From an uncultured Clostridia bacterium (GTDB lineage: Bacteria > Bacillota > Clostridia > Christensenellales > UBA1242), in the NCBI GenBank assembly GCA_944350015.1, contig CALVNW010000001.1, positions 115,183-179,182 of the forward strand: 64,000 bases of DNA, read 5' to 3'. Each line of letters opens with the position of its first letter. Position 1 is the first letter of the stretch. This document shows, piece after piece, positions 25,531-40,747 of the stretch. A program made the translations under genes and the position numbers. Under the pieces are notes generated by a model. It worked only from the letters and a program-made list of their open reading frames with translations, had not been told where the DNA came from and did not search any database.

Positions 25531-26748
25531 ATGAGTAGAGCTGATTGGACATACTTAAAAACGGTAAATAAAATTTTAAAAGAGGGCGTTTGGGATACAA
25601 AAGAGGTTGTCAGACCGAAGTGGGCAGATGGGACGCCCGCACATACTGCCAAGGTGTTTGCAATCAACAATGTGTATGACCTTGAAAAGGAGTTCCCGAT
25701 AGTGACCCTGCGTTTCACTAATTGGAAGGCGTCAATAGATGAGATTTTGTGGATTTGGCAGTTAAAAAGCAACAATGTAAATGACCTCAACAGTCACATT
25801 TGGGACCAGTGGGCAGACGAGAAGGGTAGCATTGGTAAGGCATATGGCTGGCAGATTGGGCAGAAGTCCATCTATAAAGAGGGTGAGTTTGACCAAATTG
25901 ATAGAGTTATATGGTATCTTAAAAATCAACCAGCTTTTAGAAGCATTTTAACCGAAATCTTTGTACATAAGGACTTGCACGAAATGGGACTTTATCCTTG
26001 CGTGCACGGCGCTCAATTTGATGTTACAGATGGCAAACTTAATCTATTTTTAAACCAGCGCTCTAATGACACGCTCGCTGCTGGTAGCTGGAATGTAGTG
26101 CAGTACTCCGCGCTCGTCTATATGCTTGCACAAGTTTGCAATTTAAAGCCAGGCAAGCTCTCACATATGATTGTCAATAGTCATATTTATGATAGACATA
26201 TGCCTTATATTGTCGATATAACCTTGTCGCGTGCAAGACTTGTAGAGGAGCGACTGCGGACAACAAACCTTAAAGATGCCAAGAATAAATTATCGCCAGA
26301 GAAATATGAGGCGTTAAAGACTTTCAAAAAACAACTAAGCGGGTACATCGATTACGATAGCCTTATAAAAGAGGCGCAAGAGCTTGAGGTTAAAGTAGGG
26401 CAGTACGATCTATCAAATAAAGATGAAAATCATCTGTATTTTTGTAAGGACCCAATAGATTTTGAAAAATACGTCAAAGATGTCACCTCTCAAGAGGCGT
26501 TTGAAAGGGCGCAGTACATTGTTGATACTATGGCAAGCTATCCAGAGTTTGAAGAGATTTTGTCTTTCAAATCTCCAAAACTTATCTTAGATAAAAATGT
26601 GACTGATTTTTATAAATTTATATCCCCAAAAACCAAAGATAAGGATGGTAAAATTATCGATAATCCAAACAGCAGCTTTTCTGTTCAAGATTACGACTAC
26701 CTTGAAGAAGGCGTTAAACTTCAATCAAAAGTGCCTGTCGCCGAGTAA
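25531..26748 (+). CDS. thyA: thymidylate synthase (ThyA, B. subtilis ThyA-like) with ~110-aa internal insertion
   Basis: WADGTPAHT, EILWIWQLKSNNVNDL, catalytic YPCVHG and RSND motifs. It is 405 aa versus ~280 aa expected; the extra segment is roughly aa 232-345. Confidence 0.85.
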   Translation: MSRADWTYLKTVNKILKEGVWDTKEVVRPKWADGTPAHTAKVFAINNVYDLEKEFPIVTLRFTNWKASIDEILWIWQLKSNNVNDLNSHIWDQWADEKGSIGKAYGWQIGQKSIYKEGEFDQIDRVIWYLKNQPAFRSILTEIFVHKDLHEMGLYPCVHGAQFDVTDGKLNLFLNQRSNDTLAAGSWNVVQYSALVYMLAQVCNLKPGKLSHMIVNSHIYDRHMPYIVDITLSRARLVEERLRTTNLKDAKNKLSPEKYEALKTFKKQLSGYIDYDSLIKEAQELEVKVGQYDLSNKDENHLYFCKDPIDFEKYVKDVTSQEAFERAQYIVDTMASYPEFEEILSFKSPKLILDKNVTDFYKFISPKTKDKDGKIIDNPNSSFSVQDYDYLEEGVKLQSKVPVAE

Positions 26749-26806
26749 AAATAGGTGCAATAGATATCAAGCTATCAAACAAGCACGCAATTAATGGGAG
26801 AGAAAA

Positions 26807-27601
26807 ATGAATTACACTAACAAATATAAAGATATAATTGAAGAAAAATATAATAATTATCAAGAAGATGAGAGATTTAATAGAAAATCGCAGTCTTTTG
26901 AGTTTAAAACTACAATGCACTATATACAAAAATATCTTAAAAAGGGCAGTAAGATTCTAGAAATTGGTGCAGGAACGGGAAGATACTCAATCGCGCTTGC
27001 AAAAATGGGCTATGATGTGACTGCAGTCGAACTTGTAGAAAATAATTTAAAAGTATTAAGAGAAAACGCAAAAGGGCTTGAAAACCTTAAAAGTTATCAA
27101 GGAGATGCGCTAAATTTGCAGTTTGAAAATAATTCTTTTGACCTAGTACTTTGTTTTGGTCCAATGTATCATTTATTCAACAAAAAGGATAAAGACAGGG
27201 CAATCTCTGAAACAATCAGGGTGTGCAAGCCAATAGGTATATGTATGTTTGCCTATCTTACACATTCTTCTATCGTTTGGACTTATGGCGTGAGAAAAGG
27301 TAAATTACAAAATTTGGCTTATGCACTAAATAAAGATGGGAGTATTAAAGACATACCAGAAGAAATATTTTGTTCATACTTTATTGAAGATTTTGCAAAA
27401 CAATTTGAAAAGACGGATACTACATTTTTGAAAAATGTGGCAACCGACGGTCTTGCACCTATGATGAGAGATTATATTGATGATGGTAAAATGTCAGACG
27501 AGGATATTAAGCTGCTTTACAAACTACATCTTGCCACTTGCGAGCGTCTTGATCATCAAGGATATAGCAGTCATATGCTATACATTTGCAAAAAGAATTA
27601 G
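26807..27601 (+). CDS. class I SAM-dependent methyltransferase
   Basis: Motif I ILEIGAGTGRYS followed by DVTAVE. Confidence 0.75.
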   Translation: MNYTNKYKDIIEEKYNNYQEDERFNRKSQSFEFKTTMHYIQKYLKKGSKILEIGAGTGRYSIALAKMGYDVTAVELVENNLKVLRENAKGLENLKSYQGDALNLQFENNSFDLVLCFGPMYHLFNKKDKDRAISETIRVCKPIGICMFAYLTHSSIVWTYGVRKGKLQNLAYALNKDGSIKDIPEEIFCSYFIEDFAKQFEKTDTTFLKNVATDGLAPMMRDYIDDGKMSDEDIKLLYKLHLATCERLDHQGYSSHMLYICKKN

Positions 27602-27618
27602 AATAAAATTTAATTAAA

Positions 27619-28188
27619 GTGATAGGACAAAAAATGATTATTGGTTTTCAAGGAATAAAAAACAGCTACAATGATTATGCTACCGACGAATTTATTAAAA
27701 GGTTGAAAATTAATATAAAAAAACTTCCACTTACAACGTCGGAATGCGTTGCAAGATCTTTGTTGAATAAAGAAATAGATTTTGGAGTTATCGCTTTAAA
27801 AAATAATATTGCAGGAATAGTGGAGGAAAGTAGTAAAATCTTAAGGTCTAACTTATTCAGAATAGTGGATACGATAGAAATGGAAATTAGCCATTGCCTT
27901 TTTGCATTTAACGAAAGTTCTGCTATAAATCCAAAAATTATTATTTCTCACCCGCAAGCACTAAAACAATGTGAGAAATATTTGAAATCAAATTACCCAA
28001 ACTGTGAATTACAGAAGTATATAGATACAGCAAAAACAGCAGAAGATTTAAAAAGTGGATTTTTAAATAATAGAACCCTTATTATTTGCAGTGAAAAGGC
28101 AGGAAAAGAAAATGGATTATATCTAGTTTCAAAAAACATTGCAGACAATATTAGTAGAACAACCTTTGGATTAATAAAACTCATATGA
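27619..28188 (+). CDS. pheA: prephenate dehydratase (PDT) domain protein lacking an ACT domain
   Basis: GFQGIKNSY, ISHPQALKQCEKYL and NISRTTFGLI match PDT motifs. At 189 aa it has no regulatory domain. An alternative start is the ATG at 27634. Confidence 0.65.
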   Translation: MIGQKMIIGFQGIKNSYNDYATDEFIKRLKINIKKLPLTTSECVARSLLNKEIDFGVIALKNNIAGIVEESSKILRSNLFRIVDTIEMEISHCLFAFNESSAINPKIIISHPQALKQCEKYLKSNYPNCELQKYIDTAKTAEDLKSGFLNNRTLIICSEKAGKENGLYLVSKNIADNISRTTFGLIKLI

Positions 28189-28277: not shown

Positions 28278-28416
28278 GGCTTGTTAGAGCGGATACGAAA
28301 TAGAAACTCAATATTTACTTTGGCGGACAATCGCCAAGCGTAAGGCTTGTTAGAGCGGAGACGAGGTATAAATTGAAAAATCATTTTGACGGACAATCGC
28401 CAAGCGTAAGGCTTGT
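28278..28416. repeat. ~66-bp tandem repeat (about 2 copies plus a degenerate one) abutting the tRNA fragment
   Basis: CGGACAATCGCCAAGCGTAAGGCTTGT occurs at 28324-28350 and 28390-28416. GGCTTGTTAGAGCGGA occurs at 28278-28293 and 28344-28359. Each unit contains a TTGGCG/CGCCAA hairpin. Confidence 0.8.
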
Positions 28417-28460
28417 GGTGCACCCAGAGGAGATCGAATCCCCAACCTTTCGTTCCGTAG
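28416..28460 (-). pseudogene. 3' half of a canonical tRNA-Arg(ACG): anticodon loop through CCA, no 5' half
   Basis: The minus strand reads CTACGGA-ACGAA-AGGTT-GGGGA-TTCGATC-TCCTC-TGGGTGC-A-CCA. Sequence 5' of the loop (GCTTG) cannot pair with ACGAA, and no GCACCCA lies nearby. Confidence 0.8.
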
Positions 28461-28777
28461 CAAGCACCTAAAAATGTTATAATTTGCAATTTTTGCACCA
28501 TTTTTCATCATATTTTATCAAATACTGAAAAGCCTAAACCCCATATAAAATATGACAAATCAGCTTTTATCTTTAACATACAACATTAAACAAAAGTAAA
28601 ACATAAAAACACATCATAAAACGGCACATTTTTCATAAACTTTGCAAAAATCAAGCACAAATTCGTAGACACGAGCATGAGAGCTTCTCTTAAAAAAATT
28701 TAATTCTGATTGCTACTTTTTTGTTAAGCATTTTTGTTACATTTAATTTTTCTGTGAAAGCATGTGGATTTTTAGTA

Positions 28778-28806
28778 TTGACACAAAGCTTATATGTTGT
28801 TATAAT
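28778..28806 (+). promoter_or_regulatory. consensus sigma-A-type promoter of the island operon
   Basis: TTGACA (28778-28783), a 17-nt spacer, then TATAAT (28801-28806). GGAGG at 28815-28819 and ATG at 28827. Confidence 0.7.
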
Positions 28807-28826
28807 AACCATATGGAGGATTAAAA

Positions 28827-29429
28827 ATGATAATAACAATTGATGGAGCTGATGGAGTTGGAAAAACATCTTTAGCACAGAAATTAAAAATTTATTATAA
28901 TTGTACATTAATAGAAAAACCAATTTATACATATTATAAAAGAGAATTTGGGGAAAACTGGAAAATTTTAGCAGACAAAGCGATGCAAGATAACTTAGCA
29001 GATAACTTAACTGATGAAGATAAAGTAAGGTTCGTTTGTAAATTTTTAGTTTACCTAAAGAATATATTAAACAAAAATGATTTATATATAATAGATAGAG
29101 GATTATTATCTTGTTATATTTACAATGGTAATGAAAAAACAAATCACATATTTGATAAACTTATAGAAAATGGAATTGGATTTGACTTAAGTATTTTATT
29201 AGATGCTGATACAGGCATAAGAAAGCAAAGACTCCTTTATAGAGATAAGAAAATAGATAGTAAAGTATTAGGGCTTAGGGTAGATAGGGCTTTGTCATAT
29301 GCAAAATCAAGAAATATGAATTTTGAGTATATAAATACAACAAAATTAAGTATAGATGAAGTTTTTGAACAATCAAAAGCAATGATAAACCGAAATATAA
29401 GAGAACATTTTGATGAAAGGGAATTATAA
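28827..29429 (+). CDS. P-loop kinase, thymidylate-kinase-like
   Basis: Walker A IDGADGVGKTS and a DRGLLS motif. It lacks the REPGGT-type motif of the canonical Tmk encoded at 55467-56111. Confidence 0.6.
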   Translation: MIITIDGADGVGKTSLAQKLKIYYNCTLIEKPIYTYYKREFGENWKILADKAMQDNLADNLTDEDKVRFVCKFLVYLKNILNKNDLYIIDRGLLSCYIYNGNEKTNHIFDKLIENGIGFDLSILLDADTGIRKQRLLYRDKKIDSKVLGLRVDRALSYAKSRNMNFEYINTTKLSIDEVFEQSKAMINRNIREHFDEREL

Positions 29430-29431
29430 AT

Positions 29432-30289
29432 ATGGAAATATATGAATGTCCACAAATTATAGAGATTCAATTTTGCAACTTATGTAACTCAAATTGTTTG
29501 ATTTGTCCTTACAAAGATATGAAATATAAGGCGGAGTATATGTCAAGCTCTTTGTTTTTTAAATTTATCAATGAGTTAAAAACATTAAACATAAAAAGAA
29601 TTATACCATATTTAAATAATGAACCATTTATAGATAAAAATTATATAGATAAAGTAAAAATAATACGAGAGAATTGTCCGAATGTAGAAATAGAAATATC
29701 TACAAATGCTTCATTATTGACAGAAAATATAATGTTTGAATTATTGAAATTAAATATTACTGAACTAAGATTAAGTGTATTTGGGTATTATAAAAAGACA
29801 TATAACAAAATGATGCCCAATTTAACAAAAAATGTTGTATTTGAAAATCTACACAAATTATCCAAAATTTTTAAAAATGCTAACACAAAAATTTCAATAG
29901 TTATGATTGATAATGGACAAATAGAAGAAATCGAAATCCAAAAAATGAAAAATCTTGCGACCAATTTGAATTTTGAGTTTAACAAATGGGGATTTCTTGA
30001 TAGGGCAAAAAATGTTAAAGGACAATCAAATGACTTTTATAATGATAAAGTAAATTTTTGTGAACAATTAAGGCCACTAAAAAGAATGCATATACTTGCC
30101 AATGGAGACGTCATTTTTTGCTGTCAAGATTGGAGACATAGGTATATTGTGGGCAATTTGAACAAAAATTCAATACTTGAAATTTGGAATTCTGAAAAAT
30201 ATAACTCTTTAAGAAAACAATTGTATGATAAAAATTTACTTGCTCCAGAGTTATGTTGTAATTGTAAATTAGCACATATTAAGGAGTAA
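29432..30289 (+). CDS. radical SAM enzyme with C-terminal SPASM/twitch-like Cys cluster
   Basis: CNSNCLIC (CX3CX2C) near the N-terminus. C-terminal C...GDVIFCCQD...GNL...EIW...CCNC. Confidence 0.75.
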   Translation: MEIYECPQIIEIQFCNLCNSNCLICPYKDMKYKAEYMSSSLFFKFINELKTLNIKRIIPYLNNEPFIDKNYIDKVKIIRENCPNVEIEISTNASLLTENIMFELLKLNITELRLSVFGYYKKTYNKMMPNLTKNVVFENLHKLSKIFKNANTKISIVMIDNGQIEEIEIQKMKNLATNLNFEFNKWGFLDRAKNVKGQSNDFYNDKVNFCEQLRPLKRMHILANGDVIFCCQDWRHRYIVGNLNKNSILEIWNSEKYNSLRKQLYDKNLLAPELCCNCKLAHIKE

Positions 30290-30291
30290 GT

Positions 30292-31758
30292 ATGAAAGTA
30301 GGAATTTATTATTTTAGAACATTATATACACAATCAGCGGCCTCCCTTTCGGTTGGCAAATTGTCGAATAAACTTTTAAACAATGGATATGAAGTAAATT
30401 TATTTTTGCTAAATCAAAGCAATATTTATGATAATATTTTTAATTTAAAAAATGTAGAAAATTTAGATTGTTTAATTTATAAGTGCAATTATAAAGATTT
30501 TGAATTTGGTATCAAGTTTTTTAAAAAGATATATGAAAAATATCATAAAAAAATATTTTTAACGGGTGTTTTCGCATGTTTAAATAAAAATAGAATTGAA
30601 GAAAAGTATAGTTTTCTTAAAATATTCAATCTTCTAAATGATGAGGATATAAATTTAACATTTCCTTATGTTGCTACTAAAATTCAAAAAGAAACTGTAA
30701 TTTGCAATGTTGATAGAGAAATTGAGCTAAACGAGCATAGCAAATACATTAATATAGAATTAACCAATAGTTGTAATAAAAAATGCGAATTTTGTCATAT
30801 TAATTTATTAAATCATACAAAAATAGATAAAAATATATACGAATTAGTCAATGAAATAGAATCTCTTATTAAATGTAATAAAAGATTTTTTATATTTAAT
30901 GATTGCATTTTTTGGACAGGAGAACAAGATAACGAAAAAATACTTGAATTTTGCAAAGAGGTAAAGCGAAGAAAACTAGTTTTTAGTTTTTACATTTATC
31001 TTTCATTAACACCTTTAATTCCTGATAAGCTCTTGAAAGAATTAAAAGATATTGGACTTGTAAGAGTTTTTTTTGGTGTTGAGAATATTTCAAGCGACTT
31101 CTCAAATCATTATTTGAAATTCTTGTCAACGCAGAACACAGAAAGAATGATACAAAAATTGAATGCTTGCAAAATATCTTATCATATTGGATTTATTTTA
31201 TTTTATAAACAGGTATCTTATAATTCTTTATTAGACAACCTAAATTACTTACGAACATTAGGAAAACTTTTCAGATTAGGTATAATTATAGAAAAACTAA
31301 GAATTTTACCACACACTAAAGATGCTTGTTATCTTACTGAAAACAAAGATAAAATAGATATGGCTTATAATTATAATTTTGATGATGAAAAAGTTGAAAA
31401 AATATTTAATAATCTTACACATTTGTTTAAGAATATCAACATTCGCAATTTTGAACAATTTTTTAATGGAATTTCACTTGCCGAAAGTTTATTAATAAGA
31501 TACAATAAATATGATAGTTATAAAAAGGAATTAAATGATTATTATAATTTAAAAATAGATGTAAATAATAAACTTTATGATATAATAATTGATATAATAG
31601 AAAAAGACGAAATTAATGAAGATCACATTAACGAAATCAAACTTTTGTATTCTGCTAGCGAAATAAATTATACTTTTTTCTTTAAAAAATTATTGACTTT
31701 AGATTTTGATATTTTTTCTATGATACCACATGGGCAGGAGACATTAAATTTATGGTAA
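30292..31758 (+). CDS. radical SAM enzyme with N-terminal B12-binding-type domain (class B-like)
   Basis: The N-terminal ~100 aa have a Rossmann-like pattern (SLSVGKLSNKLLNNGYEV...IFLTGVF). This is followed by CNKKCEFC and GVENIS. Confidence 0.65.
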   Translation: MKVGIYYFRTLYTQSAASLSVGKLSNKLLNNGYEVNLFLLNQSNIYDNIFNLKNVENLDCLIYKCNYKDFEFGIKFFKKIYEKYHKKIFLTGVFACLNKNRIEEKYSFLKIFNLLNDEDINLTFPYVATKIQKETVICNVDREIELNEHSKYINIELTNSCNKKCEFCHINLLNHTKIDKNIYELVNEIESLIKCNKRFFIFNDCIFWTGEQDNEKILEFCKEVKRRKLVFSFYIYLSLTPLIPDKLLKELKDIGLVRVFFGVENISSDFSNHYLKFLSTQNTERMIQKLNACKISYHIGFILFYKQVSYNSLLDNLNYLRTLGKLFRLGIIIEKLRILPHTKDACYLTENKDKIDMAYNYNFDDEKVEKIFNNLTHLFKNINIRNFEQFFNGISLAESLLIRYNKYDSYKKELNDYYNLKIDVNNKLYDIIIDIIEKDEINEDHINEIKLLYSASEINYTFFFKKLLTLDFDIFSMIPHGQETLNLW

Positions 31759-32636
31759 TCGCGTTTGAGGGGAATGTACATTCGGGTAAAACATATTTTA
31801 CAAAGCAATTTTTGCATAAACATAAAGATTTTACATTTATACCCGAAATACATTTCATTGAAAAGCCAAACCAATTTGAGCAACAAGAATATTATATAAA
31901 AGAAGAAATATCAAAAAAATCCAATAACCTTGACAAAAATATTTTACTAGATAGATCAATAATATCAACAATTATATTTACTCAATATACAACAATGTTA
32001 ACAAAACAAGATAAGAAATTCTTATTAGATAAAATCGAAAAGGCTATTTTAAATAAAGATTTGTTCTTCCCAGATATTGTTTATATTTTCCTCTATCCTT
32101 TTAATAAAATAGTAGATAACCATAATATTTTATACAAAACAAAACATACTCAAAATGAACTTGCTACATATGATTACTATTGCTTTACACTGAAAATTCT
32201 TTCAAATTTAAGCAATAAGTATAGAATAGTATATAATGATGATGACAGGCAAATTTTAGAAGTAAAAAATATAAAATTAAATCAAACTCAAAATAATATT
32301 ATAGCAATTAATTTAACAAAAATTAATTCAGAATATAATTTGAATAAATTTTACGAAAAATATATAATTAAAAGGGAAAAGGTTGATGAGAACTTTTTAA
32401 AAGCACTATTGTATTTTGCAAAAAGCTTAAACAATAATAATTTTTCAGCATTAATATATGATATTTATAAGAACATTCCTTTAATTTATCATTTTAAAAC
32501 AAAAGATGTTATAAACATTATAAAGAATTCGCTTAATTGTGAACTTCAAATTGATCTAAACAAAAAAAATAATGTTGTTTTTTTAATAGACATAATGGAA
32601 TTTATAAAAAATTATAGGGGGGAGATAAAATGTTGA
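31752..32636 (+). CDS. deoxynucleoside-kinase-like P-loop kinase fused to an unknown ~130-aa C-terminal region
   Basis: Walker A FEGNVHSGKT and the LLDRSIIS motif (dNK/TMK family). Overlaps the upstream gene by 7 nt. Confidence 0.55.
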   Translation: MVIAFEGNVHSGKTYFTKQFLHKHKDFTFIPEIHFIEKPNQFEQQEYYIKEEISKKSNNLDKNILLDRSIISTIIFTQYTTMLTKQDKKFLLDKIEKAILNKDLFFPDIVYIFLYPFNKIVDNHNILYKTKHTQNELATYDYYCFTLKILSNLSNKYRIVYNDDDRQILEVKNIKLNQTQNNIIAINLTKINSEYNLNKFYEKYIIKREKVDENFLKALLYFAKSLNNNNFSALIYDIYKNIPLIYHFKTKDVINIIKNSLNCELQIDLNKKNNVVFLIDIMEFIKNYRGEIKC

Positions 32637-33832
32637 TATTCCTTATATTATCAGTTTCAATTATAATGTTTTCAATATTAAAAGCACTTTATAGGCTAAT
32701 AAGAGTTAAAAAATTCCTTTTTAGTAGCAAAGTTTCTTTGGATAATTCAATGATGGGTAATAATAAAAAAATTGATATAATTATCCCCGTTTACAATGAA
32801 ACTAAAACAGTTGAAAATAGCATAAGCTATTTTTCTAGGTTAGATAATTATTGTAATATATATTATGTCACAACCAATAAAGAAAAAAGTAAAGATACTT
32901 ATAAAAAGATTCTTTATTTGATAGATAAATACAAAACGAAGAATGTTTTTCTTTATAACTGCCCAAATACTACAGGAACTATGGCTACACAACTAAATTA
33001 TATTGCGAAGAAATTGCCTAATGACAGCATTATTGGGATATATAATGTAGACTCTTTTCCAAAACCAGATACATTTCTATATGTATTAAATCACATAAAA
33101 AAAGGATCCCCCTTGCAACAGGTATCCTATTTTAACGATAATAAAAAATTCATAATGTCCAGTGCGCAAAATTGGCAAAATAGATGGTCTGTTGTTTATG
33201 AACTAGGTAAATATACTAGTAAAGCAAAATTAAATTTTACATATAGTATCGGACACGGTTTTTTTATTTATAAGTCTGATTTAGATAAATATGGCTATTG
33301 GTCCGATACAGAAATTAATGAAGACAATGAATTTGGCTATAGAATTTTAATAAACAATGGTAAAATATATTCCATTCCTTTTTTTGAACAAGCTGGATTC
33401 GCTAAAAATGTATCAGTTTATATAAAACAACAATCGACATGGTTTAATGGTCCATTGTATGCTTTTAGTTATTTTAAAAAGAATAAAAAAAATTTTCATA
33501 ATTTTTTATTATCATGTTTAAATTTTAAAGCTGCAGTAAGTTGGCTATTTTATCCAATTTTTTCACTCATAATTTTTATTTTAGGATTTATCTTCAATTA
33601 CTGGTATATTTCGATCATTTTATTTGTCGAAATGTTTATTTATATTACAATTATTAACTATCTCTCATACAAAATTTTAAAAGTATATTTACCAAAATTA
33701 AAATACTCGCTAACATCAGTTTTAACTGATTTTCTCTTTTTTTTAATTCATTCTTTTGGTCCTTGCCTAACATTGTGCAAAGTTATTTTAAGAAAAAATA
33801 CGATTAACAATAAATACAATACAGAAAAATAA
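32630..33832 (+). CDS. integral-membrane family-2 glycosyltransferase (processive-synthase-like motifs)
   Basis: N-terminal TM helix. Motifs IDIIIPVYNE, NVDS, EDNEFGYR and QQSTW (QxxRW-like). At least 3 C-terminal TM helices. Confidence 0.7.
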   Translation: MLIFLILSVSIIMFSILKALYRLIRVKKFLFSSKVSLDNSMMGNNKKIDIIIPVYNETKTVENSISYFSRLDNYCNIYYVTTNKEKSKDTYKKILYLIDKYKTKNVFLYNCPNTTGTMATQLNYIAKKLPNDSIIGIYNVDSFPKPDTFLYVLNHIKKGSPLQQVSYFNDNKKFIMSSAQNWQNRWSVVYELGKYTSKAKLNFTYSIGHGFFIYKSDLDKYGYWSDTEINEDNEFGYRILINNGKIYSIPFFEQAGFAKNVSVYIKQQSTWFNGPLYAFSYFKKNKKNFHNFLLSCLNFKAAVSWLFYPIFSLIIFILGFIFNYWYISIILFVEMFIYITIINYLSYKILKVYLPKLKYSLTSVLTDFLFFLIHSFGPCLTLCKVILRKNTINNKYNTEK

Positions 33833-33851
33833 AGATATGAAATACATATCC

Positions 33852-34370
33852 TTATTTTTTGTGGACTCCTCTTGCCTTTCTCATTTCAAAAAGTGCTGAA
33901 ATGAAAGATGGGTAGTAACCTATAAAATTTTTTGATTCTATCATTTTCAAAATTTCTTCCTTTGTTGCCCATTTGACGGCTTGAACTTCATTATCTTTAA
34001 AAGTAACTTCATCTAAAGATACATCTTTTTCAATTAAATAGAAATCATCAAAACCATTGTCAAAATTAATGGTCATATATGGTCGCTCATTCGAAAAATC
34101 ATAATCTAAGCCAAGTTCTTCGCTCAATTCTCTTCTTGCAGCTTGCCTTGAGTTTTCTCCTGCTTGAACACATCCACCTAATGTGATGTCCCAAGCATTG
34201 GGCCACGATTTTTTGGTGCTTTGTCGCTGTTGAATAAGCATTTCACCTTTTTTATTAAAAATACATATATGTATAACCAGTCTACAAAGATCAGAAGGAC
34301 AATTTTCTCCGCGCTCAATAGTTTTGCCTACTAACTGCCTATCATTATTATATAAGTCCCATTTTTCCAT
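33852..34370 (-). CDS. Nudix hydrolase
   Basis: Nudix box GGCVQAGENSRQAARRELSEELGL. The start is set at the ATG 9 nt after AGGAG. Confidence 0.8.
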   Translation of the reverse strand: MEKWDLYNNDRQLVGKTIERGENCPSDLCRLVIHICIFNKKGEMLIQQRQSTKKSWPNAWDITLGGCVQAGENSRQAARRELSEELGLDYDFSNERPYMTINFDNGFDDFYLIEKDVSLDEVTFKDNEVQAVKWATKEEILKMIESKNFIGYYPSFISALFEMRKARGVHKK

Positions 34371-34417
34371 AATCACAAACTCCTTTTTAATAATATAACA
34401 TAATTAATGTAAAAAAA

Positions 34418-35053
34418 TCAACTTTTTTTCAAAACAAAAATAATAAAGGGTTTATTTTTAAACCATTTCTTAACTTGTAAAATTTTTTTTACAAACTTTC
34501 TATCGTCAAATCTTTTAATTTCAACGATTTGAAAGTTAGCTGAATCTAGAATTTTCAGCCAGTCTTTTTTGGACATAAATCTTTCGTTTCCATATGTTGC
34601 CTCTTTTTTATTAAAAAAGTTTGTTGGTACGCTAATTATATTATATTGGCAAAAATTAAATATGTTTTTGATTGCTTTTATTATCATTTTATCATTAAAA
34701 TGTTCGTAAACACCATTTGAAAATGCAACATCAAATTGTCTATCAAATTTGCAATTTATTATATCCTCTTTTAAATATTCCGGTATGTTTTCATTCTCTT
34801 TAGCTATATTTGAAATTTGTTTAGCTAGATTTATCATCTTTTCATCATTATCTATAGATACTACCTTATAACCTATTTGTGCTAGATATAAAGATATAAT
34901 ACCTGTTCCGCAACCAGTTTCAATGATTGTCTTGTTATTTGCATATTTTTCTATTATCTTGATATAATTTTTTTTATATTTAACTTTATTTTCTATGTAT
35001 TTTTTTACACCTTTTTTATTAATTTCATCTTTATAAACTTTAATCCATTCCAT
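34418..35053 (-). CDS. class I SAM-dependent methyltransferase
   Basis: Motif I IIETGCGTGIIS. The start is set at MEWIKVY after AAGGTGG. Confidence 0.7.
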   Translation of the reverse strand: MEWIKVYKDEINKKGVKKYIENKVKYKKNYIKIIEKYANNKTIIETGCGTGIISLYLAQIGYKVVSIDNDEKMINLAKQISNIAKENENIPEYLKEDIINCKFDRQFDVAFSNGVYEHFNDKMIIKAIKNIFNFCQYNIISVPTNFFNKKEATYGNERFMSKKDWLKILDSANFQIVEIKRFDDRKFVKKILQVKKWFKNKPFIIFVLKKS

Positions 35054-35233
35054 ATATACCCACCTTATTAAATAACATAAAAACACATTAAATAATTTAT
35101 CTCTTTAATTAAGATAATGATTTATGCTTATTAATAATATATTATAAACTATACAAAAATTTAGTCAAATGTTTTGAAGGCCGGAATTTAGATTAACAAA
35201 AAATATCAATATAAATATTTCGGCATAGAAATT

Positions 35234-35588
35234 ATGGAAGCGCAAGCAAAATACATTTTTGAAAACTTGGAATTTGATAAAATCGAAAATGGATATTTTG
35301 TTGCAAGTCATCGAACTTTGCCACTTTTTCCAAAAATAGAAAAACTTTTGCTTTGTCAAAAAGAGCAAACGGAGCACAACAAACTTATCTATGGCAAATA
35401 CTACAACACCAAATATCTTGACTATGTCTTTGTGAATGAAATTGTGATTTACTTCTTCCTGACTATGTAGCTCACAAATTTTGTGAGATTTTAAAGAAGA
35501 ATAAACTCAAACACCATTCGCTTTCACGATTTGAGGCACAGTTGTGCAAGTTTGCTTGTTGCTAATGGCGTGCTAATTTTGTGATTAA
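35234..35588 (+). pseudogene. tyrosine integrase pseudogene (N- and C-terminally truncated, two in-frame stops)
   Basis: Reads ...RTLPLFPKIEKLL...YLDYVFVNE...*LTNFVRF*RRINSNTIRFHDLRHSCASLLVANGV and then stops. The catalytic-Tyr segment is absent. Confidence 0.75.
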
Positions 35589-35589
35589 A

Positions 35590-35624
35590 ACAAAAAATCT
35601 AGCGACTGTCAAAATCGCTAGATT
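35590..35624 (-). terminator. intrinsic terminator immediately 3' of the mini-tRNA copy
   Basis: The minus strand reads AATCTAGCGA-TTTTGACAG-TCGCTAGATT followed by TTTTTTG. Confidence 0.6.
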
Positions 35625-35644
35625 GCCCATAAGTATTGGGGGGA

Positions 35645-35698
35645 TGGTGCACCCAGAGGAGTTCGAATCCCCAACCTTTCGTTATGCTTTCTGGGTGC
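35645..35698 (-). pseudogene. internally deleted tRNA-Arg copy (acceptor stem, T arm and 3' anticodon-stem strand only)
   Basis: The minus strand reads GCACCCA-GAAAGCATA-ACGAA-AGGTT-GGGGA-TTCGAAC-TCCTC-TGGGTGC-A-CCA. The D arm, 5' anticodon stem and loop are missing. Confidence 0.75.
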
Positions 35699-35862
35699 AA
35701 ATCTCAAGTTCTGCGTAAATTTTTACACCCAAAAACAACTAAAACGCCCAAAACGACTTGTGTTTTTACACATTTCACACCTAAACAATACAACATAAAT
35801 ACACAAAAAGTCAACCGTATTGGTTGGCTTTTTTCATATCTAAAAACAAAGGAGAACTACAA

Positions 35863-36381
35863 ATGAAAGTAATAACAACAATGCAAGAAGCATTACAAGA
35901 ACTACCTAATACAAACCTAACTCCGAACGTAGTAAAGGACGTATTACTAAATACGTACCTGTTTGAAACAGAGTTCAAAGGTAGTACAATAAATCAAATA
36001 ATAATACTAGATAAAGATGACAACTACGTACCACCAAATACGACACCTGAAATAGAAGAAGATATAGACAACTACCATAAAACCCTGTACATAGTCTCTG
36101 ATACTGGCGAGGGTGTACTGACGTATTCCGAACAAATTCGAGGTATGGCTTCGACTCCCATCGTCCTTGACGATAATCAACGAATAATAACTTTGCTACA
36201 CAACGCAATTTCATACATAGAAGATACAATGTTGAATGGCGATAAACTAATAAACACGAAAATAGCAAATGAACTTGGCATCACCAACGAAGAATACGAA
36301 CATCTAATGAGTGAGTGTCCTGAGAGTGCTGACGATTCAACTAGTAACCTCGCCGAAAGGCGTAAAATCACTACCAAATAA
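35863..36381 (+). CDS. hypothetical protein (element-borne)
   Basis: ORF with an AAGGAG RBS at MKVITTMQ. No motif recognised. Confidence 0.5.
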   Translation: MKVITTMQEALQELPNTNLTPNVVKDVLLNTYLFETEFKGSTINQIIILDKDDNYVPPNTTPEIEEDIDNYHKTLYIVSDTGEGVLTYSEQIRGMASTPIVLDDNQRIITLLHNAISYIEDTMLNGDKLINTKIANELGITNEEYEHLMSECPESADDSTSNLAERRKITTK

Positions 36382-36458
36382 AAAACACTTGCCAAACCAT
36401 CAAAATTCCTATGGGGGTGGGTGGGCGTTCTTGGCATATTAAAATAAAGGAGTAAAAA

Positions 36459-36707
36459 ATGGATAATCTAATTGAACTTGTATGGAACAAGTTAGAAGAA
36501 ACCGAAAGAACTGGCGAAATGGAACGCCAACTAGACATAATAATTGAAAAAGAAAAGAAATTCACAAAAGAATTTTCAAAAGATAAGTTTGGCGAATATC
36601 TAGACCTATCTTTTGAAACACTTGCGTACGAAGGTATGAAGATTGAGCAAGCAATCAAAGTGACAATCGAAGTATTGAAAGATATTCAAAAACTAGTCGC
36701 CGTCTAG
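36459..36707 (+). CDS. hypothetical small helical protein (element-borne)
   Basis: ORF with an AAGGAG RBS. No motif recognised. Confidence 0.45.
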   Translation: MDNLIELVWNKLEETERTGEMERQLDIIIEKEKKFTKEFSKDKFGEYLDLSFETLAYEGMKIEQAIKVTIEVLKDIQKLVAV

Positions 36708-36763
36708 AAACTTATACGTAAAATGAACTATACTTAAAATGTTTGCAAAAAGGAGGCGAAAAT

Positions 36764-37720
36764 ATGCAAATACTATTCAAAGATTGGCTGATTGAATGGC
36801 TTGAAAGCAAGAAGAACAACATAAAATACCGAACATTTTTGAGATATAACGAACTGATAAAATTACACATACTTGAAAACTTGGGTAATGTTGAAATCAA
36901 AAACCTCAGTTTGCAAATGGTACAAGATTTCATAAATACTCAAATGGAAAAAGGAAACTTAAACAATGGTAAAGGTATGTCAACCAGCAGTGCAAAAACA
37001 ATGATAAGTATAATCAAAAATAGCGTTGACTACGCTGTTGATTGTGGAATACTAGAAGATAATAAAATAGCAAGAATGAAAAACCCTAAGTCAGTTGAAA
37101 GATACGTTGACGCATTCACGACACAAGACCAAATAAAGATTGAAAACTACATACAAAACAATGGAAGAAAAAATCACATTGGAATAATAATCTGCTTGTA
37201 CACAGGTTTGCGATTGGGTGAACTACTATCTCTCACTTGGGATGACATAGATTTTGAACATTCAATGTTAAAAGTAAATCGCACATATTCAGTAATCAAA
37301 AATGAAAATGGCGAATACATACAGCACATTGATACCCCTAAAACGTTCAGTTCTCGTAGAGTGATACCATTACCACCTTTCCTACTAAAAATACTTAAAC
37401 AACTAAAAAGGACTAGCACAAGCAACCACATTATCAATACTTGCCATAATACGCTAGTAAGTCCTCGTTCGTATCAAAGAACGTTTGAAAAGATAACACG
37501 CAAAGCAAATGTACCTAAAAAGAATTTTCACTCACTACGTCACACATTTGCGACACGTGCTCTTGAAAATGGAATGGATGTCAAAACTCTAAGCAAGATA
37601 CTAGGACATAAAAACCCTATGATTACACTCACAAAATATGGGCATAGTTTGATTGAAACTAAACGCAAGATGATGAATGCCCTTGCTAAAATCTCAGTTT
37701 ACAATCTCAAAAAAGTATAA
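36764..37720 (+). CDS. tyrosine recombinase / phage-type integrase (apparently intact)
   Basis: YTGLRLGELLSLTWDDID, HSLRHTFATRALENGMDVKTLSKILGH and a TKYGH C-terminal Tyr. The start is set after AAGGAGG. Confidence 0.85.
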   Translation: MQILFKDWLIEWLESKKNNIKYRTFLRYNELIKLHILENLGNVEIKNLSLQMVQDFINTQMEKGNLNNGKGMSTSSAKTMISIIKNSVDYAVDCGILEDNKIARMKNPKSVERYVDAFTTQDQIKIENYIQNNGRKNHIGIIICLYTGLRLGELLSLTWDDIDFEHSMLKVNRTYSVIKNENGEYIQHIDTPKTFSSRRVIPLPPFLLKILKQLKRTSTSNHIINTCHNTLVSPRSYQRTFEKITRKANVPKKNFHSLRHTFATRALENGMDVKTLSKILGHKNPMITLTKYGHSLIETKRKMMNALAKISVYNLKKV

Positions 37721-37849
37721 TAAATGACATCTTGCAAAAGTCACAAAATTCAGCCAAAAAATGAAACAAAAAATCCACCTATTTATTCAATTGGTGGACT
37801 GAATTTTTAAGTTCTTACATTCATTATAGCAGAAAAGAGGGACAAATAC

Positions 37850-37879
37850 AATACTTTTTGAAAAATTTCAAAAAGTATT
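37850..37879. promoter_or_regulatory. perfect 14-bp inverted repeat (operator-like) upstream of the element lipoprotein gene
   Basis: AATACTTTTTGAAA-aa-TTTCAAAAAGTATT. Confidence 0.4.
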
Positions 37880-37944
37880 ACCAAGATTCACGTCAAAAAA
37901 CCACCTAATGAATAAATTGGCGTACATACAAAAGGAGAATAAAA

Positions 37945-38732
37945 ATGAAAAAAAGAAAAACGTTGTTGACTATAATGATTTCAGTATTTTTATGCTGTGC
38001 ATTTCTTTTAAGTGGTTGTGGTGGAAGTAAAGACTCAACCGTATCAGTTAGATTTGGTGAATTTGGATATAATGGCAGATATTTAACAGCCTTTGCGACA
38101 CAAAATATCCAACCTGAACAAAGCAAAACAAATTTTGTCTGATAATATGGGTAGCAATGTTATGTCAGTAAGTGCATTATCGGTAGCAAGTGAAGTTAAC
38201 CCAGCCCCAGACCAAACACTAGTTGACTTTGTGCTTGCTAGATATGCAGGATGCCATATCATAACTAAATTCTATGTTGAAGGAAGCGAAGAACAAGTTT
38301 CAAAAACAGATTACTTAATTGGTACTGACTTAAAAAATATGATTGTTGAAAATAAGTTTACACCTTTTTTAACAATTAGTTGCAAAATATGTGGTTTGTT
38401 TTCCAAATTTAATTGATACAATGGAAGAACTTAATAACGAATTTCAAAATTCCAGCGAATCACTAATTGCTCCATTTACTAGTATATTTACATACCATAC
38501 TAACGCAAAAGGCGAATTGGTTATTCAATCAAGAGATTTTGCTGAAATACCTTCAAGCATTGGTGGTGGCATAGGCTCGAGTTATAGACAAGATACTGAA
38601 ATACTATATGACAATCAAAATAAAATTCAGAAGTGGCAAACTTCACTTGGTTTGTATTCTGCTACACCACAAGGAACAATGAAGCAAGGTTATATTTTGG
38701 AAATTGAGTTTATTTGGGAAATGAAAGTATAA
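37945..38732 (+). pseudogene. lipoprotein gene apparently broken by two frameshifts
   Basis: Lipobox LLSGC-GG at the start. Three consecutive overlapping ORFs in frames 1, 2 and 3 (37945-38142, 38093-38416, 38391-38732) without their own RBSs. Confidence 0.4.
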
Positions 38733-40743: not shown

Positions 40744-40747
40744 TATA

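Follow-up and report, generated by a model that had tools for sequence, protein, structure and literature searches.

In prokaryotic viperin operons, a radical SAM enzyme is combined with a nucleotide kinase and an NTP pyrophosphatase, while BtrN, a sugar/aminocyclitol dehydrogenase, and AprD4, a sugar 1,2-diol dehydratase, are sugar-acting. Glycosyltransferases of the PgaC/IcaA/NodC type are synthases that make and translocate their own product. Among nucleoside pathways, the thmABC cluster produces 4'-thiothymidine with a radical SAM enzyme, an AbmG-like kinase and an NTPase for self-resistance, AbmG itself being a kinase of thionucleoside biosynthesis (PMC12691670), and TruD-like enzymes are a hallmark of C-nucleoside antibiotics (PMC8724604). 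The island described here lies in a window of 64,000 nucleotides (the whole stretch of DNA analysed) from an uncultured Clostridia bacterium, and no published description of its cassette was found in the literature.

Layout and borders of the island

All seven ORFs reported in the preliminary description are present at its coordinates, with gaps and overlaps of the sizes it gave, and the region contains the following features:

28416-28454: left att-like direct repeat, tRNA-Arg(acg) 3'-half fragment
28778-28806, plus strand: sigma-70-type promoter of the five-gene operon, TTGACA-17-TATAAT with extended -10 TG
28816-28820, plus strand: ribosome-binding site GGAGG, 3' of the operon promoter, read directly from the sequence
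28827-29429, plus strand: ORF1, TMK-superfamily NMP-kinase-like protein, 200 aa
29432-30289, plus strand: ORF2, BtrN-like radical SAM enzyme with one twitch-type auxiliary-cluster domain, 285 aa
30292-31758, plus strand: ORF3, radical SAM enzyme of class-B architecture, 488 aa
31752-32636, plus strand: ORF4, dNK/TMK-fold kinase domain followed by a degenerate second kinase domain
32630-33832, plus strand: ORF5, membrane-embedded synthase-type GT2, 400 aa
33852-34370 (ORF to 34376), minus strand: ORF6, Nudix hydrolase of the YfcD/DR_0079 subgroup
34418-35053/35086, minus strand: ORF7, class I SAM-dependent methyltransferase
35168 to 35141, minus strand: promoter-like site TTGACT-16-TATAAT (11/12 match), upstream of the methyltransferase-Nudix pair
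~35234-35570, plus strand: decayed tyrosine-integrase gene, seen by three-frame translation
35645-35683: right att-like direct repeat, tRNA-Arg 3'-half fragment
35684-40747: second integrative element, between the island and tRNA-Arg(acg) at 40748-40822

The plus-strand operon (28827-33832), to which the Nudix-methyltransferase pair is convergent, has 2-nt gaps at ORF1/2 and ORF2/3 and 7-nt overlaps at ORF3/4 and ORF4/5, and its genes are translationally coupled under one strong promoter, which looks constitutive. This promoter had been called perfect and is indeed the sole 12/12 match within 28400-35700; because promoter-like sites in the region (69, versus 58.6 +/- 7.1 in shuffles) do not exceed shuffles in total, only its quality and position carry weight. 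The island is AT-rich, as claimed, with a computed G+C of 24.3% against 36% in the flanks, figures that replace the hand counts of 10-30% and 35-55%.

Regarding the borders, an earlier reading had placed the island between 3'-half repeats of tRNA-Arg next to an integrase pseudogene, and both elements are found. The repeats are 39 nt long, 97% identical and match the 3' halves of tRNA-Arg(acg), the similarity of the left one extending to ~28460 and reaching the anticodon region; both differ in the T-stem from the resident tRNA-Arg, and the right one forms the border to the second integrative element. The decayed integrase keeps ...SHRTLPLFP... and RFHDLRHSCASLLVANGV but neither its N-terminal half nor the region of the catalytic Tyr; stop codons break the frame, and over a local stretch it is weakly similar to the intact integrase at 36743-37720. 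The copy in a sister species likewise adjoins tRNA-Arg(acg) and has an unrelated left flank. In higher-GC hosts the G+C of the cassette is below that of the host, and in hosts of 22-27% GC it is equal to it. The island is best explained as a horizontally mobile, self-contained cassette of probably biosynthetic function.

The encoded enzymes

ORF1, previously described as thymidylate-kinase-like, matches Pfam Thymidylate_kin above cutoff (34.3 bits, cutoff 27; E 2.4e-8) and a PHROG thymidylate kinase (2.4e-14), has TMK 2pbr as its PDB relative and carries the P-loop DGADGVGKT, DRG and LID arginines in the family alignment, while scoring below the NCBIfam dTMP-kinase cutoff (28.6 versus 83). The host tmk is a separate gene, as had been noted, its span now corrected from 55467-56111 to 55467-56150 on the minus strand. 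ORF4 had no match in the Pfam search of the island proteins; its residues 1-175 form a kinase domain with GNVHSGKT, E32, Q45, Y48 and DRS, which is TMK/dNK-like by fold (Foldseek relatives TMK 2pbr, dAK 8puu, dCK and AbmG 8j5f) and by phrog_761 (thymidylate kinase, 4.8e-6), in agreement with the deoxynucleoside-kinase assignment. Its C-terminus, formerly regarded as unknown, is what remains, in degenerate form, of a second P-loop kinase domain (residues ~176-294, ~120 in number), which the family alignment shows intact in orthologues of 379-420 aa; the AF2 pLDDT is 80-90 for the N-domain and below 40 for the C-terminal half. Both proteins belong to the TMK/dNK superfamily, as expected for nucleotide or nucleoside kinases.

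ORF2 matches Radical_SAM and SPASM in Pfam and has the SAM-cluster motif CNSNCLIC. The alignment shows only five invariant C-terminal cysteines (C210, C230, C231, C275 and C278), so the SPASM/twitch-like region noted before is twitch-like, as in BtrN, and not the full SPASM of peptide maturases. Compared with PDB, its profile finds BtrN (2e-18), the match covering the SAM-cluster region as well as the twitch region, with the peptide epimerase YydG a far weaker match. ORF3, with a Pfam Radical_SAM match, the core motif CNKKCEFC and a helical C-domain (AF2 pLDDT 90.7), has OxsB as its best solved relative by sequence (HMM, 5e-9) and by fold (Foldseek, 3e-15, followed by MgmA, CysS, TokK, AprD4 and TsrM), and its best mutual structural coverage is with AprD4 (TM 0.59/0.63). 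Its N-domain, described earlier as B12-binding, is a diverged Rossmann/B12-like domain, as judged from its fold and from homology to PF02310-carrying outgroups; it has no Pfam B12-binding match, and putative cobalamin binding is unsupported at the sequence level. The family is rare, with 72 representatives at E<=1e-30 among 1.84 billion. Both enzymes share 10-20% identity with their solved relatives, a level at which radical SAM function is poorly predictable.

The Pfam matches of ORF5 (Glyco_trans_2_3, 9.6e-11/Glycos_transf_2), ORF6 (NUDIX, 3.9e-18, with a canonical Nudix box) and ORF7 (Methyltransf_25/11/23) agree with the multi-TM GT2, Nudix and class I methyltransferase first assigned. Hydropathy gives ORF5 one TM segment at the N-terminus and about three at the C-terminus; its motifs are PVYNE, D-S-x, NEDN and QQSTW and, in the alignment, an invariant C-terminal NKYNTEK, and 11 of 12 family members match PgaC/IcaA weakly along the full length. 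DxD lacks its second acidic residue and QxxRW its Arg, so the sugar donor of ORF5 is uncertain. Of all cassette genes, ORF6 is conserved best (52-88% identity to orthologues, versus 24-82% for the other genes), and its PDB relatives are DR_0079 (4e-15) and YfcD (3e-10), the former preferring cytosine (deoxy)nucleoside di-/triphosphates, as given in a passage of PMC5389931 citing Buchko 2008.

Recurrence of the gene set

The core set comprises the twitch radical SAM enzyme, the class-B-like radical SAM enzyme, the dNK-like kinase, the synthase-type membrane GT2 and the Nudix hydrolase, usually but not always accompanied by the TMK-like kinase. It is conserved outside this genome, as had been proposed, and its recurrence is confirmed to exceed chance by far, since it is found in ~30 independent loci of gut Clostridia/Bacilli at 33-80% protein identity, in different host species and unrelated contexts. 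The hosts seen are uncultured gut Firmicutes only, and the phage, plasmid and viral contigs searched held no relatives. Wherever the length of a locus permits all four to be seen, ORF2-ORF3-ORF4-ORF5 lie next to one another; an orthologous Nudix gene is present in 14 loci and the TMK-like gene in 12, being missing at some (L012, L013 and L026). A GT2-seeded search independently returned the same partners as the radical SAM-seeded one, with the GT2 and the radical SAM pair conserved equally strictly. All-against-all clustering of the loci gave no further recurring family, be it a flippase, polymerase, precursor peptide, defence gene, dedicated transporter or regulator, and embedding in capsule or teichoic-acid loci, raised earlier as a concern, was never seen. 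ORF7 is an accessory, not a core, member, as its orthologue adjoins the cassette in only three other loci (L021, L023 and L038) and is absent at the sister-species locus (L032).

Variant clusters retain the core and gain nucleotide- and phosphate-related enzymes: three tandem kinases, an IMPase-type and a HAD phosphatase in L048; CYTH, HAD, NTP_transf_5 and MTase in L038; His-phosphatase, kinase, Nudix and Ter-type ATP-grasp in L042; and TruD, PHP, two NTP_transf_5, Aminotran_5, GDSL, a carrier protein and an aaRS-like ligase in L013/L026/L029/L039/L047.

Candidate product and competing readings

The preliminary proposal of an acquired pathway that modifies a nucleoside or nucleotide holds as to mobility, conservation and the type of kinases; the methyltransferase is not a core component, and for cobalamin binding by ORF3 the sequence gives no support. 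To a nucleoside-derived secondary metabolite, i.e., a modified nucleoside or nucleotide whose substrate, order of steps and identity we infer, we assign about half of the total probability. The ORF4 N-domain would phosphorylate a salvaged nucleoside, probably a pyrimidine, and ORF1 would convert the monophosphate into the diphosphate, the triphosphate being reached by host Ndk in the present host and, in other loci, by the second intact ORF4 kinase domain or the three tandem kinases. Then, the two radical SAM enzymes would remodel the sugar of the phosphorylated nucleotide, with ORF3 (OxsB/AprD4-type class-B) possibly abstracting hydrogen with rearrangement, dehydration or methylation and ORF2 (BtrN-type twitch) oxidising or epimerising a secondary alcohol. 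The DR_0079-like Nudix may cleave NDP/NTP, whether modified or stray, down to the monophosphate, either for release or for cleaning the producer's own nucleotide pool as self-protection; the membrane GT2 would add one or more sugars and move the product through the membrane, and the methyltransferase would be optional tailoring. The product may be an antimetabolite that works outside the producer. The solved relatives (OxsB/AprD4, BtrN, AbmG/dNK/TMK and DR_0079) lend independent support to the nucleotide direction, and candidate roles of the product are those of an antibiotic, an anti-phage agent or a surface component.

A different product, unlikely in our estimate, is a surface glycan or glycolipid: the radical SAM enzymes would alter a nucleotide-sugar (e.g., UDP-GlcNAc), and the GT2 would polymerise or transfer and extrude the unusual sugar. 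The altered cell surface would serve to mask phage receptors or to interact with the host, and the kinases and Nudix would be there for recycling or policing of the nucleotide carrier. ORF5 corresponds to PgaC/IcaA/NodC-type synthases in size, topology and order of motifs, BtrN and AprD4 act on sugars, the conservation of the GT2 equals that of the radical SAM pair and the hosts include several Bacilli with small genomes, in which surface glycolipids are important. However, clustering of the loci found no recurring gene for a sugar-1-phosphate nucleotidyltransferase, epimerase/dehydratase, flippase, polymerase or ligase, nor one for anchoring. Carrier recycling hardly explains the HAD, IMPase, His-phosphatase, PHP and CYTH enzymes of the variants together with as many as three dNK/TMK-type kinases, and the extended variant with TruD, carrier protein and aaRS-like ligase resembles small-molecule biosynthesis.

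Less probable still is an anti-phage system, in which, on infection, kinases and radical SAM enzymes would turn a cellular nucleotide into a chain-terminating or polymerase-poisoning analogue, as viperins do, and the Nudix would limit self-toxicity. The gene combination parallels the logic of viperin operons, PADLOC relates ORF1 to the candidate PDC-M51B (8e-11) and the Nudix to PDC-S07 (2e-13), and the cassette lies in mobile or variable regions, with MazG-like, Nudt16-like, SLFN-type helicase and Fic neighbours in L030 and a reverse transcriptase in L009. Nevertheless, these neighbours did not recur in the clustering, PADLOC gave no match for the radical SAM enzymes, ORF4 or the GT2, the obligatory GT2 has no role in such a mechanism, and the seemingly constitutive promoter and the lack of relatives on the phage, plasmid and viral contigs speak against it. 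The earlier viperin analogy fails as a statement of membership; ORF2 matches viperin weakly and in the SAM-cluster region only (E 0.003).

A RiPP cluster, with a ribosomal peptide that radical SAM enzymes of the SPASM and B12 types would modify and the GT2 would then glycosylate, is very improbable: despite the Pfam SPASM match of ORF2, weak NCBIfam matches of ORF3 to RiPP enzymes (ApyD and CUAEP-tail), the otherwise unexplained invariant tail of the GT2 and, directly upstream of the cassette in L031, a C39-peptidase ABC exporter with four small ORFs, these bacteriocin-like genes occur in no other locus, clustering found no conserved small ORF, ORF2 is short, has no RRE domain and a single auxiliary cluster and resembles the small-molecule enzyme BtrN, and the kinases, Nudix and phosphatases are left unaccounted for.

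Returning to the nucleoside-derived metabolite, we know of no counterpart to the obligatory membrane synthase-type GT2 in nucleoside-analogue clusters, and this enzyme fits a surface glycan at least as naturally. Meanwhile, the antimetabolite logic proposed for the cassette product is that of nucleoside-analogue antibiotics, and thmABC offers a precedent for its combination of radical SAM enzyme and kinase.

Organization and genomic setting of the island

The seven open reading frames claimed in the preliminary description were all found, at the coordinates listed below, and they form a cassette of about 6.3 kb with one strong promoter. ORF1 to ORF5 are as tightly packed as had been described, with 2-nt gaps or 7-nt overlaps, which implies translational coupling. 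In addition, the TTGACA-17-TATAAT promoter ahead of them proved to be the sole perfect sigma-70 consensus in the region and also bears an extended -10 TG, with a GGAGG ribosome-binding site downstream. The Nudix and methyltransferase (MTase) genes run convergent to this operon and have their own promoter, with an 11/12 match.

Features of the island and its surroundings
28416-28454 and 35645-35683, 39-nt direct repeats (att-like)
28778-28806, promoter of ORF1 to ORF5
28827-33832, forward strand, ORF1 to ORF5: TMK-like kinase, twitch radical SAM enzyme (rSAM), class-B-like rSAM, dNK-like kinase, membrane GT2
33852-34370, reverse strand, ORF6, Nudix hydrolase
34418-35053, reverse strand, ORF7, methyltransferase
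35168 to 35141, promoter of the Nudix-methyltransferase pair
35684-40747, second element
40748-40822, resident tRNA-Arg(acg)
55467-56150, host tmk

A tRNA-targeting integrative island is recognized by direct repeats from a tRNA 3' end, an integrase gene and a deviant composition. Here, a decayed tyrosine integrase and the seven genes lie between 39-nt repeats of 97% identity, and the G+C content is 24% against 36% (computed as 24.3% for the cassette and 36% for each flank). Alignment with tRNA-Arg genes identified both repeats as tRNA-Arg(acg) 3' halves, the left copy extending into the anticodon region. The integrase remnant keeps the segments ...SHRTLPLFP... and RFHDLRHSCASLL; stop codons break its reading frame, and the catalytic Tyr region is missing. 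An Rfam search for riboswitches or other RNAs returned tRNA-Arg as its sole match. The sole terminator-like hairpin in the region, a 12-bp stem followed by a T-run, lies at 35596-35624 on the reverse strand, between the integrase remnant and the right repeat, facing leftward.

The island is separated from the resident tRNA-Arg(acg) by the second element, which is small, carries an intact tyrosine integrase (36743-37720) and has about ten short ORFs. Compared with the two displaced 39-mers, the 3' half of the present tRNA shows paired changes in the T-stem, which would be expected had the newer element brought its own tRNA end. In a sister species (L032, proteins 76-88% identical), an intact tRNA-Arg(acg) directly adjoins the cassette, and both copies are associated with this tRNA. 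A shared insertion site was rejected, as the left flank of the sister-species locus L014 has no nucleotide similarity to that of the window. Neither an integrase nor the att 39-mer was found in the other loci, nor a left-hand tRNA-fragment repeat in L032.

The exact cassette proteins occur on at least 23 metagenome contigs, in the same context every time, indicating that the island is fixed in its source species. Regarding composition, cassette G+C is lower than that of the host in higher-GC hosts (the window, L014, L015 and L029) and equal to it in hosts of 22-27% G+C. This pattern suggests that the cassette arose in very AT-rich Firmicutes and later spread.

The left flank has features of its own. 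At 25531-28188, which is slightly AT-richer (30-33% G+C) than the remaining flank, a folD-folA-glyA-thyA row is closed by a 405-aa ThyA-like protein, composed of a thymidylate synthase domain and a C-terminal extension of ~130 aa. It is followed by a 264-aa methyltransferase, which is a paralogue of ORF7, and then by a PDT-domain protein. Immediately adjoining the att-like 39-mer on its left side, two copies (83% identical) of a 66-nt unit form a tandem direct repeat (28278-28415), and a third unit starts with GGCTTGT and runs directly into the tRNA fragment. Gene calls over this repeat differ between L001 and L003, suggesting that its copy number varies between strains.

Predicted enzymes of the cassette

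The functions discussed here are predictions drawn from remote homology (10-20% identity to solved enzymes) and from gene context. Pfam supported the domain calls of the preliminary description for six of the proteins, ORF4 being the one for which no family match was obtained.

ORF2 and ORF3 both show the CX3CX2C motif of the radical SAM superfamily, as CNSNCLIC and CNKKCEFC, respectively, and score above the Pfam threshold for Radical_SAM (52.9 and 43.9 bits; cutoff 29.5), with the SAM-cluster cysteines invariant in each family. Twitch-type enzymes have about 250-290 aa, no RRE and a truncated SPASM fold in which about four C-terminal cysteines hold one auxiliary [4Fe-4S] cluster. In agreement with this, ORF2 has 285 aa and five invariant C-terminal cysteines (C210, C230, C231, C275 and C278). 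Its family profile finds BtrN at 2e-18, in an alignment that spans the SAM-cluster core as well as the twitch region and brings the CC..C..C columns into register; the peptide enzyme YydG scores far behind. By these sequence features, ORF2 is classed as a BtrN-like twitch-type rSAM. Full SPASM peptide maturases possess seven to eight auxiliary-cluster cysteines, an RRE/PqqD-like domain and a precursor peptide nearby; ORF2 was rejected as one of them, having five conserved cysteines, no N-terminal extension and no conserved small ORF. A Pfam SPASM match is present in ORF2, and this Pfam family also takes in twitch domains.

ORF3 defines a distinct family of ~490 aa. It is rare, numbering about 45-70 sequence clusters among 1.8 billion representatives, and exhaustive HMMER searching gave 72 representatives at E<=1e-30 among 1.84 billion. 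Its model (pLDDT 90.7) has a class-B architecture and matches OxsB, CysS, TokK and TsrM over the full length of the fold. OxsB is the closest solved relative (5e-9 by sequence, 3e-15 by fold), followed by MgmA, CysS, TokK, AprD4 and TsrM, while AprD4 gives the best mutual coverage (TM 0.59/0.63). Class B is defined by fusion of the radical SAM core to a B12-binding Rossmann domain (PF02310) at the N-terminus. Pfam found no PF02310 match in ORF3 or in its sister group of 520-560 aa; the domain is present in outgroups at E ~1e-30, where it aligns to the N-domain region of ORF3. Thus, ORF3 is probably a descendant of class-B enzymes and may use cobalamin. The B12-like domain of AprD4 makes no use of cobalamin, showing that a class-B architecture can function in its absence. 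On metagenome contig L034, the ORF3 orthologue is broken into a 214-aa and a 286-aa ORF (5392-6868), representing either a frameshift pseudogene or an assembly error.

Regarding the kinases, ORF1 belongs to the TMK superfamily. It has a P-loop and a DRG motif, its LID contains three conserved arginines, and it is a Pfam-level member of Thymidylate_kin (34.3 bits, cutoff 27). A Tmk equivalog is expected to exceed the curated cutoff and to show a P-loop, a DR(Y/F/H) motif and a LID. ORF1 was rejected as a dTMP kinase for its score of 28.6 bits against TIGR00041 (cutoff 83.25), its DRG in place of DRY/F and the presence of the host tmk, to which it is additional; this canonical gene had been claimed beforehand and was found.

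For ORF4, a dNK assignment looks for the fold, a P-loop, a Glu base after beta2, base-contacting Gln/Tyr, (D/E)RS and Pfam PF01712. Residues 1-175 form a P-loop kinase domain with invariant GNVHxGKT (GNVHSGKT in the window), E32, Q45, Y48 and D67-R68-S69, and the LID is devoid of the usual arginines. The structure was predicted from a six-sequence alignment, of which the usable part is the N-domain (pLDDT 80-90). This domain superposes on thymidylate, deoxyadenosine and deoxycytidine kinases and on AbmG, with Foldseek TM to target of 0.5-0.6. Pfam gave no match for the window protein; its orthologues reach 23-31 bits, the cutoff being 27. ORF4 is also matched by PHROG phrog_761 'thymidylate kinase'. 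A second P-loop domain (DGxPxxGKS) is intact in the orthologues of 379-420 aa, is a degenerate remnant in the window copy and is wholly missing in L012 and L023. This diversity was taken from fetched loci, as word-indexed searching, even with a profile, gave seven proteins.

In ORF5, a GT-A domain is predicted to lie between one TM segment on its N-terminal side and about three on its C-terminal side; the protein scores 42.3 against Pfam Glyco_trans_2_3 (cutoff 27). Processive GT2 enzymes combine a GT-A domain, the D, DxD, (T/G)ED and QxxRW motifs, and flanking TM helices forming a channel. The motif order of ORF5 is that of processive synthases (PVYNE, D-S-x, NEDN, QQS[T/V]W), but the DxD lacks its second acidic residue and the QxxRW its Arg. 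Such residues normally contact the nucleotide diphosphate and the metal. A weak full-length PgaC/IcaA match is seen in 11 of 12 family members, the PgaC_IcaA score of ORF5 being 35 bits against a curated cutoff of 422, and the family alignment shows an invariant C-terminal tail, NKYNTEK.

Meanwhile, ORF6 contains the canonical Nudix box (GX5EX7REUXEEXGU) as GGCVQAGENSRQAARRELSEELGL, scores 66.2 bits against Pfam NUDIX and has DR_0079 and YfcD as its closest solved relatives; of these, DR_0079 acts preferentially on di- and triphosphates of cytosine (deoxy)nucleosides (PMC5389931, citing Buchko 2008). It is the best-conserved member of the cassette, 78% identical to the L015 copy, against 36-57% for the other proteins. 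The ORF7-type methyltransferase occurs in only two loci of the phmmer map and in L038.

Conservation of the gene set and its variants

Conservation of the gene set outside the source genome, which the preliminary description had asked for, was confirmed in about 30 loci. The contexts of distant ORF3 members and a scan of GTDB species genomes gave loci from Clostridium sp. CAG:710, from uncultured Clostridia and Bacilli of the gut, and from Eubacterium sp. AF36-5BH, a cultured carrier of the extended variant described below. In the phmmer map of all loci, ORF2, ORF3, ORF4 and ORF5 occur together in each sufficiently long locus, with an orthologous Nudix in 14 loci and the TMK-like gene in 12. 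An independent metagenome scan seeded with the GT2 recovered the same partners wherever a flank was available; thus, the GT2 is linked as tightly as the rSAM pair.

When all ORFs of 40 aa or more from 17 loci were clustered against one another, no further family recurred, only antisense shadow ORFs, so transporters, flippases, polymerases, regulators, precursor peptides and defence genes are excluded as conserved partners. Nor are the clusters embedded in capsule or teichoic-acid loci, an arrangement that the preliminary description had named as one that would refute its reading: across the roughly 30 loci, with up to 10 kb of flank per side, no glycan-assembly gene recurs, whether flippase, polymerase, chain-length regulator, priming transferase or nucleotide-sugar gene. 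A capsule or teichoic-acid, Wzx-Wzy or ABC-dependent glycan locus was rejected, since the co-located genes that it requires do not recur. A surface glycan or glycolipid made from an rSAM-modified nucleotide-sugar would account for the synthase-like GT2; however, it appears rather doubtful in view of the missing nucleotide-sugar and glycan-assembly genes and of the abundant nucleoside kinases and phosphatases. We favour, with moderate confidence, a mobile cassette that builds a modified nucleoside or nucleotide. The variant clusters also point to nucleotide and phosphate chemistry.

Variant clusters among the homologous loci
L046, L048, L049: twitch rSAM, class-B-like rSAM and GT2 kept, no ORF4; three consecutive dNK/TMK-like kinases, an IMPase-family phosphatase and a HAD phosphatase added
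L038: ORF3, tandem kinase, GT2, Nudix and ORF7-type methyltransferase kept; CYTH triphosphatase, HAD, NTP_transf_5 and GDSL enzyme added
L042: twitch rSAM, GT2 and Nudix kept; His-phosphatase, P-loop kinase and Ter-type ATP-grasp added
L013, L026, L029, L039, L047 (extended variant): full core within a cluster of about 15 genes; class-V aminotransferase, two NTP_transf_5, PHP phosphoesterase, TruD-like pseudouridine synthase, GDSL enzyme, carrier protein and class II aaRS-like ligase added

The five extended loci are mutually syntenic. In L013 (9579-11417), the twitch rSAM is fused to an N-terminal P-loop protein of ~320 aa, giving 612 aa in total, and the same P-loop protein is a separate upstream gene in L026 (18960-20824), L029, L039 and L047. 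It was not counted as a kinase, since it has only the P-loop in common with ORF4 (hhalign probability 14%).

Some loci have neighbours of their own. In L012, a Peptidase_S66 gene (LdcA/MccF family, 12247-13287) follows the GT2 after a 3-nt gap; MccF-type enzymes detoxify aminoacyl-nucleotide antibiotics, and the gene could serve in immunity or simply be a cell-wall LD-carboxypeptidase. In L031 (5723-8984), a C39-peptidase ABC exporter and four bacteriocin-like ORFs of 49-65 aa lie directly upstream of the cassette, and these genes were found in no other locus examined. In L030, the cassette is flanked by defence-like genes (2734-6973 and 15609-16127), encoding a Nudt16-like Nudix, a MazG-like protein, an SLFN/nSTAND-type helicase and Fic.

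Proposed pathway and relation to known systems

From the gene linkage, the mobility and the family and fold assignments, which are observed, we infer substrate, step order, product and role as follows. A nucleoside would be converted to its di- or triphosphate by ORF4 and ORF1, the last phosphorylation in some relatives being made by a third kinase domain. The sugar of this nucleotide would be remodelled by the OxsB/AprD4-like and BtrN-like rSAMs, and the Nudix enzyme would cleave NDP/NTP, whether modified or stray, back to the monophosphate, serving release, self-protection or both. The synthase-type GT2 would glycosylate the product and carry it over the membrane, the methyltransferase being an optional tailoring enzyme.

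An anti-phage role like that of viperin, with chemistry close to this pathway, seems improbable. It would agree with the PADLOC candidate matches of ORF1 and the Nudix and with the occasional defence-like neighbours, but neither rSAM is a viperin and the GT2 would be left without explanation. The effector of prokaryotic viperin defence is an rSAM homologous to viperin over its full length, whereas viperin chains match the ORF2 profile at E 0.003-0.004 over residues 6-123 only, the shared SAM-cluster region, and give no match to ORF3. PADLOC models matched ORF1, the Nudix and the methyltransferase alone, each by a candidate or generic model, and matched neither rSAM; the name PDC-M51 was not found in the searchable literature. 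In addition, no relatives of ORF3 were found in IMG/VR contigs, INPHARED phages or PLSDB plasmids, so the role is not backed by phage or plasmid copies, and PHROGs matches are to generic kinase, Nudix and methyltransferase families alone. A RiPP cluster is unlikely, with neither precursor peptide nor RRE and with the affinity of ORF2 to BtrN.

Within the modified-nucleotide reading, it is conceivable, as a tentative extension, that the cassette makes a new class of natural product, an rSAM-remodelled nucleotide that is glycosylated and exported via the GT2, or polymerized into a nucleotide-derived surface polymer, and used by gut Firmicutes against microbes or phages. In that case, a donor or acceptor without precedent would explain the altered diphosphate-binding motifs of the GT2 (D-S-x, QQS[T/V]W), and secretion would be coupled to glycosylation, a route known for no nucleoside metabolite.

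None of the cassette proteins reaches the cutoff of a curated NCBIfam model, public databases name them 'radical SAM protein' or not at all, and full-text searches by gene-content combinations found no description of the cassette. The enzyme superfamilies and the logic of rSAM, kinase and pyrophosphatase are already known; the novelty lies in the particular pairing of rSAMs, in a synthase-type GT2 that is obligatory and in the host range in gut Firmicutes. There is a real chance that the cassette is more unusual than a variant on known logic. Antibiotics and antivirals have already been drawn from nucleoside analogues, and to our knowledge their producers are nearly all actinomycetes or Gammaproteobacteria, and no nucleoside pathway has an obligatory membrane glycosyltransferase. 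Here, a mobile, self-contained and rare cassette of strictly anaerobic gut Firmicutes joins two rSAMs to up to three nucleotide kinases. Its small size, single strong promoter and cultured carrier make its function directly testable, with new rSAM nucleotide chemistry, a bioactive gut-microbiome metabolite or a new defence mechanism as the possible gain.

Comparing the cassette with known systems, ORF5 resembles the PgaC/IcaA/NodC/HAS synthases in its length of about 400 aa, its N-terminal TM, cytosolic GT-A and C-terminal TMs, its motif order and the spacing of about 37 residues from the (E)D motif to the Q-x-x-x-W motif. However, it differs in D-S-x, QQS[T/V]W and its own NKYNTEK tail, and is devoid of partners such as PgaABD or IcaDBC. 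ORF2 shares with BtrN of butirosin its size, the CX3CX2C motif and the cysteine pattern of a single twitch cluster, and AprD4 of apramycin superposes best on the ORF3 model in mutual coverage. Both act on aminoglycoside pseudo-oligosaccharides and belong to actinomycete/Bacillus clusters rich in aminotransferases and GTs of other families, whereas the cassette carries no aminoglycoside genes. With prokaryotic viperins only the logic is shared, an rSAM converting the NTP from an associated kinase into an antiviral nucleotide, and the cassette differs in having two rSAMs and a membrane GT2.

Meanwhile, OxsB of oxetanocin A acts on phosphorylated deoxyadenosine, is the best solved relative of ORF3 and is likewise paired with a nucleotide phosphohydrolase. 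It differs in having 744 aa with an extra N-terminal domain and about 13% identity to ORF3. OxsB is cobalamin-dependent, and ORF3 has no recognizable B12-binding sequence signature; moreover, the OxsB partner OxsA is an HD phosphohydrolase instead of a Nudix, and the Oxs system has neither GT2 nor kinases. Albomycin biosynthesis also combines a dNK-like kinase with two rSAMs (the twitch enzymes AbmM and AbmJ), there acting on a cytidine nucleotide; AbmG (8j5f/8j5g) is among the structural neighbours of ORF4, and the SerRS-like AbmK recalls the aaRS-like gene of the extended variant. However, the cassette core has no siderophore or peptide part, and we know of no GT2 or Nudix in the abm cluster.

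Pseudouridimycin and malayamycin, which are C-nucleoside antibiotics, have as their hallmark a TruD-like enzyme that works with kinases, phosphatases and an rSAM (PMC8724604), and the extended variant similarly combines a TruD-like gene with kinases, a phosphatase and rSAMs. The window cassette lacks TruD, whereas the pum and mal clusters, from actinomycetes, lack the GT2, the Nudix and the class-B-like rSAM. Finally, thmABC of Photorhabdus asymbiotica produces the antibiotic 4'-thiothymidine with an rSAM, an AbmG/dNK-like nucleoside kinase and a self-resistance nucleoside triphosphatase (PMC12691670). The likeness is one of gene content, that of a compact cluster of rSAM, AbmG-like kinase and nucleotide hydrolase (PMC12691670). 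Differently from the cassette, thmABC has three genes, a gammaproteobacterial host and no second rSAM, GT2 or TMK-like kinase, and its NTPase is not stated to be a Nudix, as that of the cassette is (PMC12691670). By analogy, thmABC would be a direct precedent for the kinase, rSAM and NTPase elements of the proposed pathway, and its gene content suggests that the cassette may be of the nucleoside-analogue antibiotic type.
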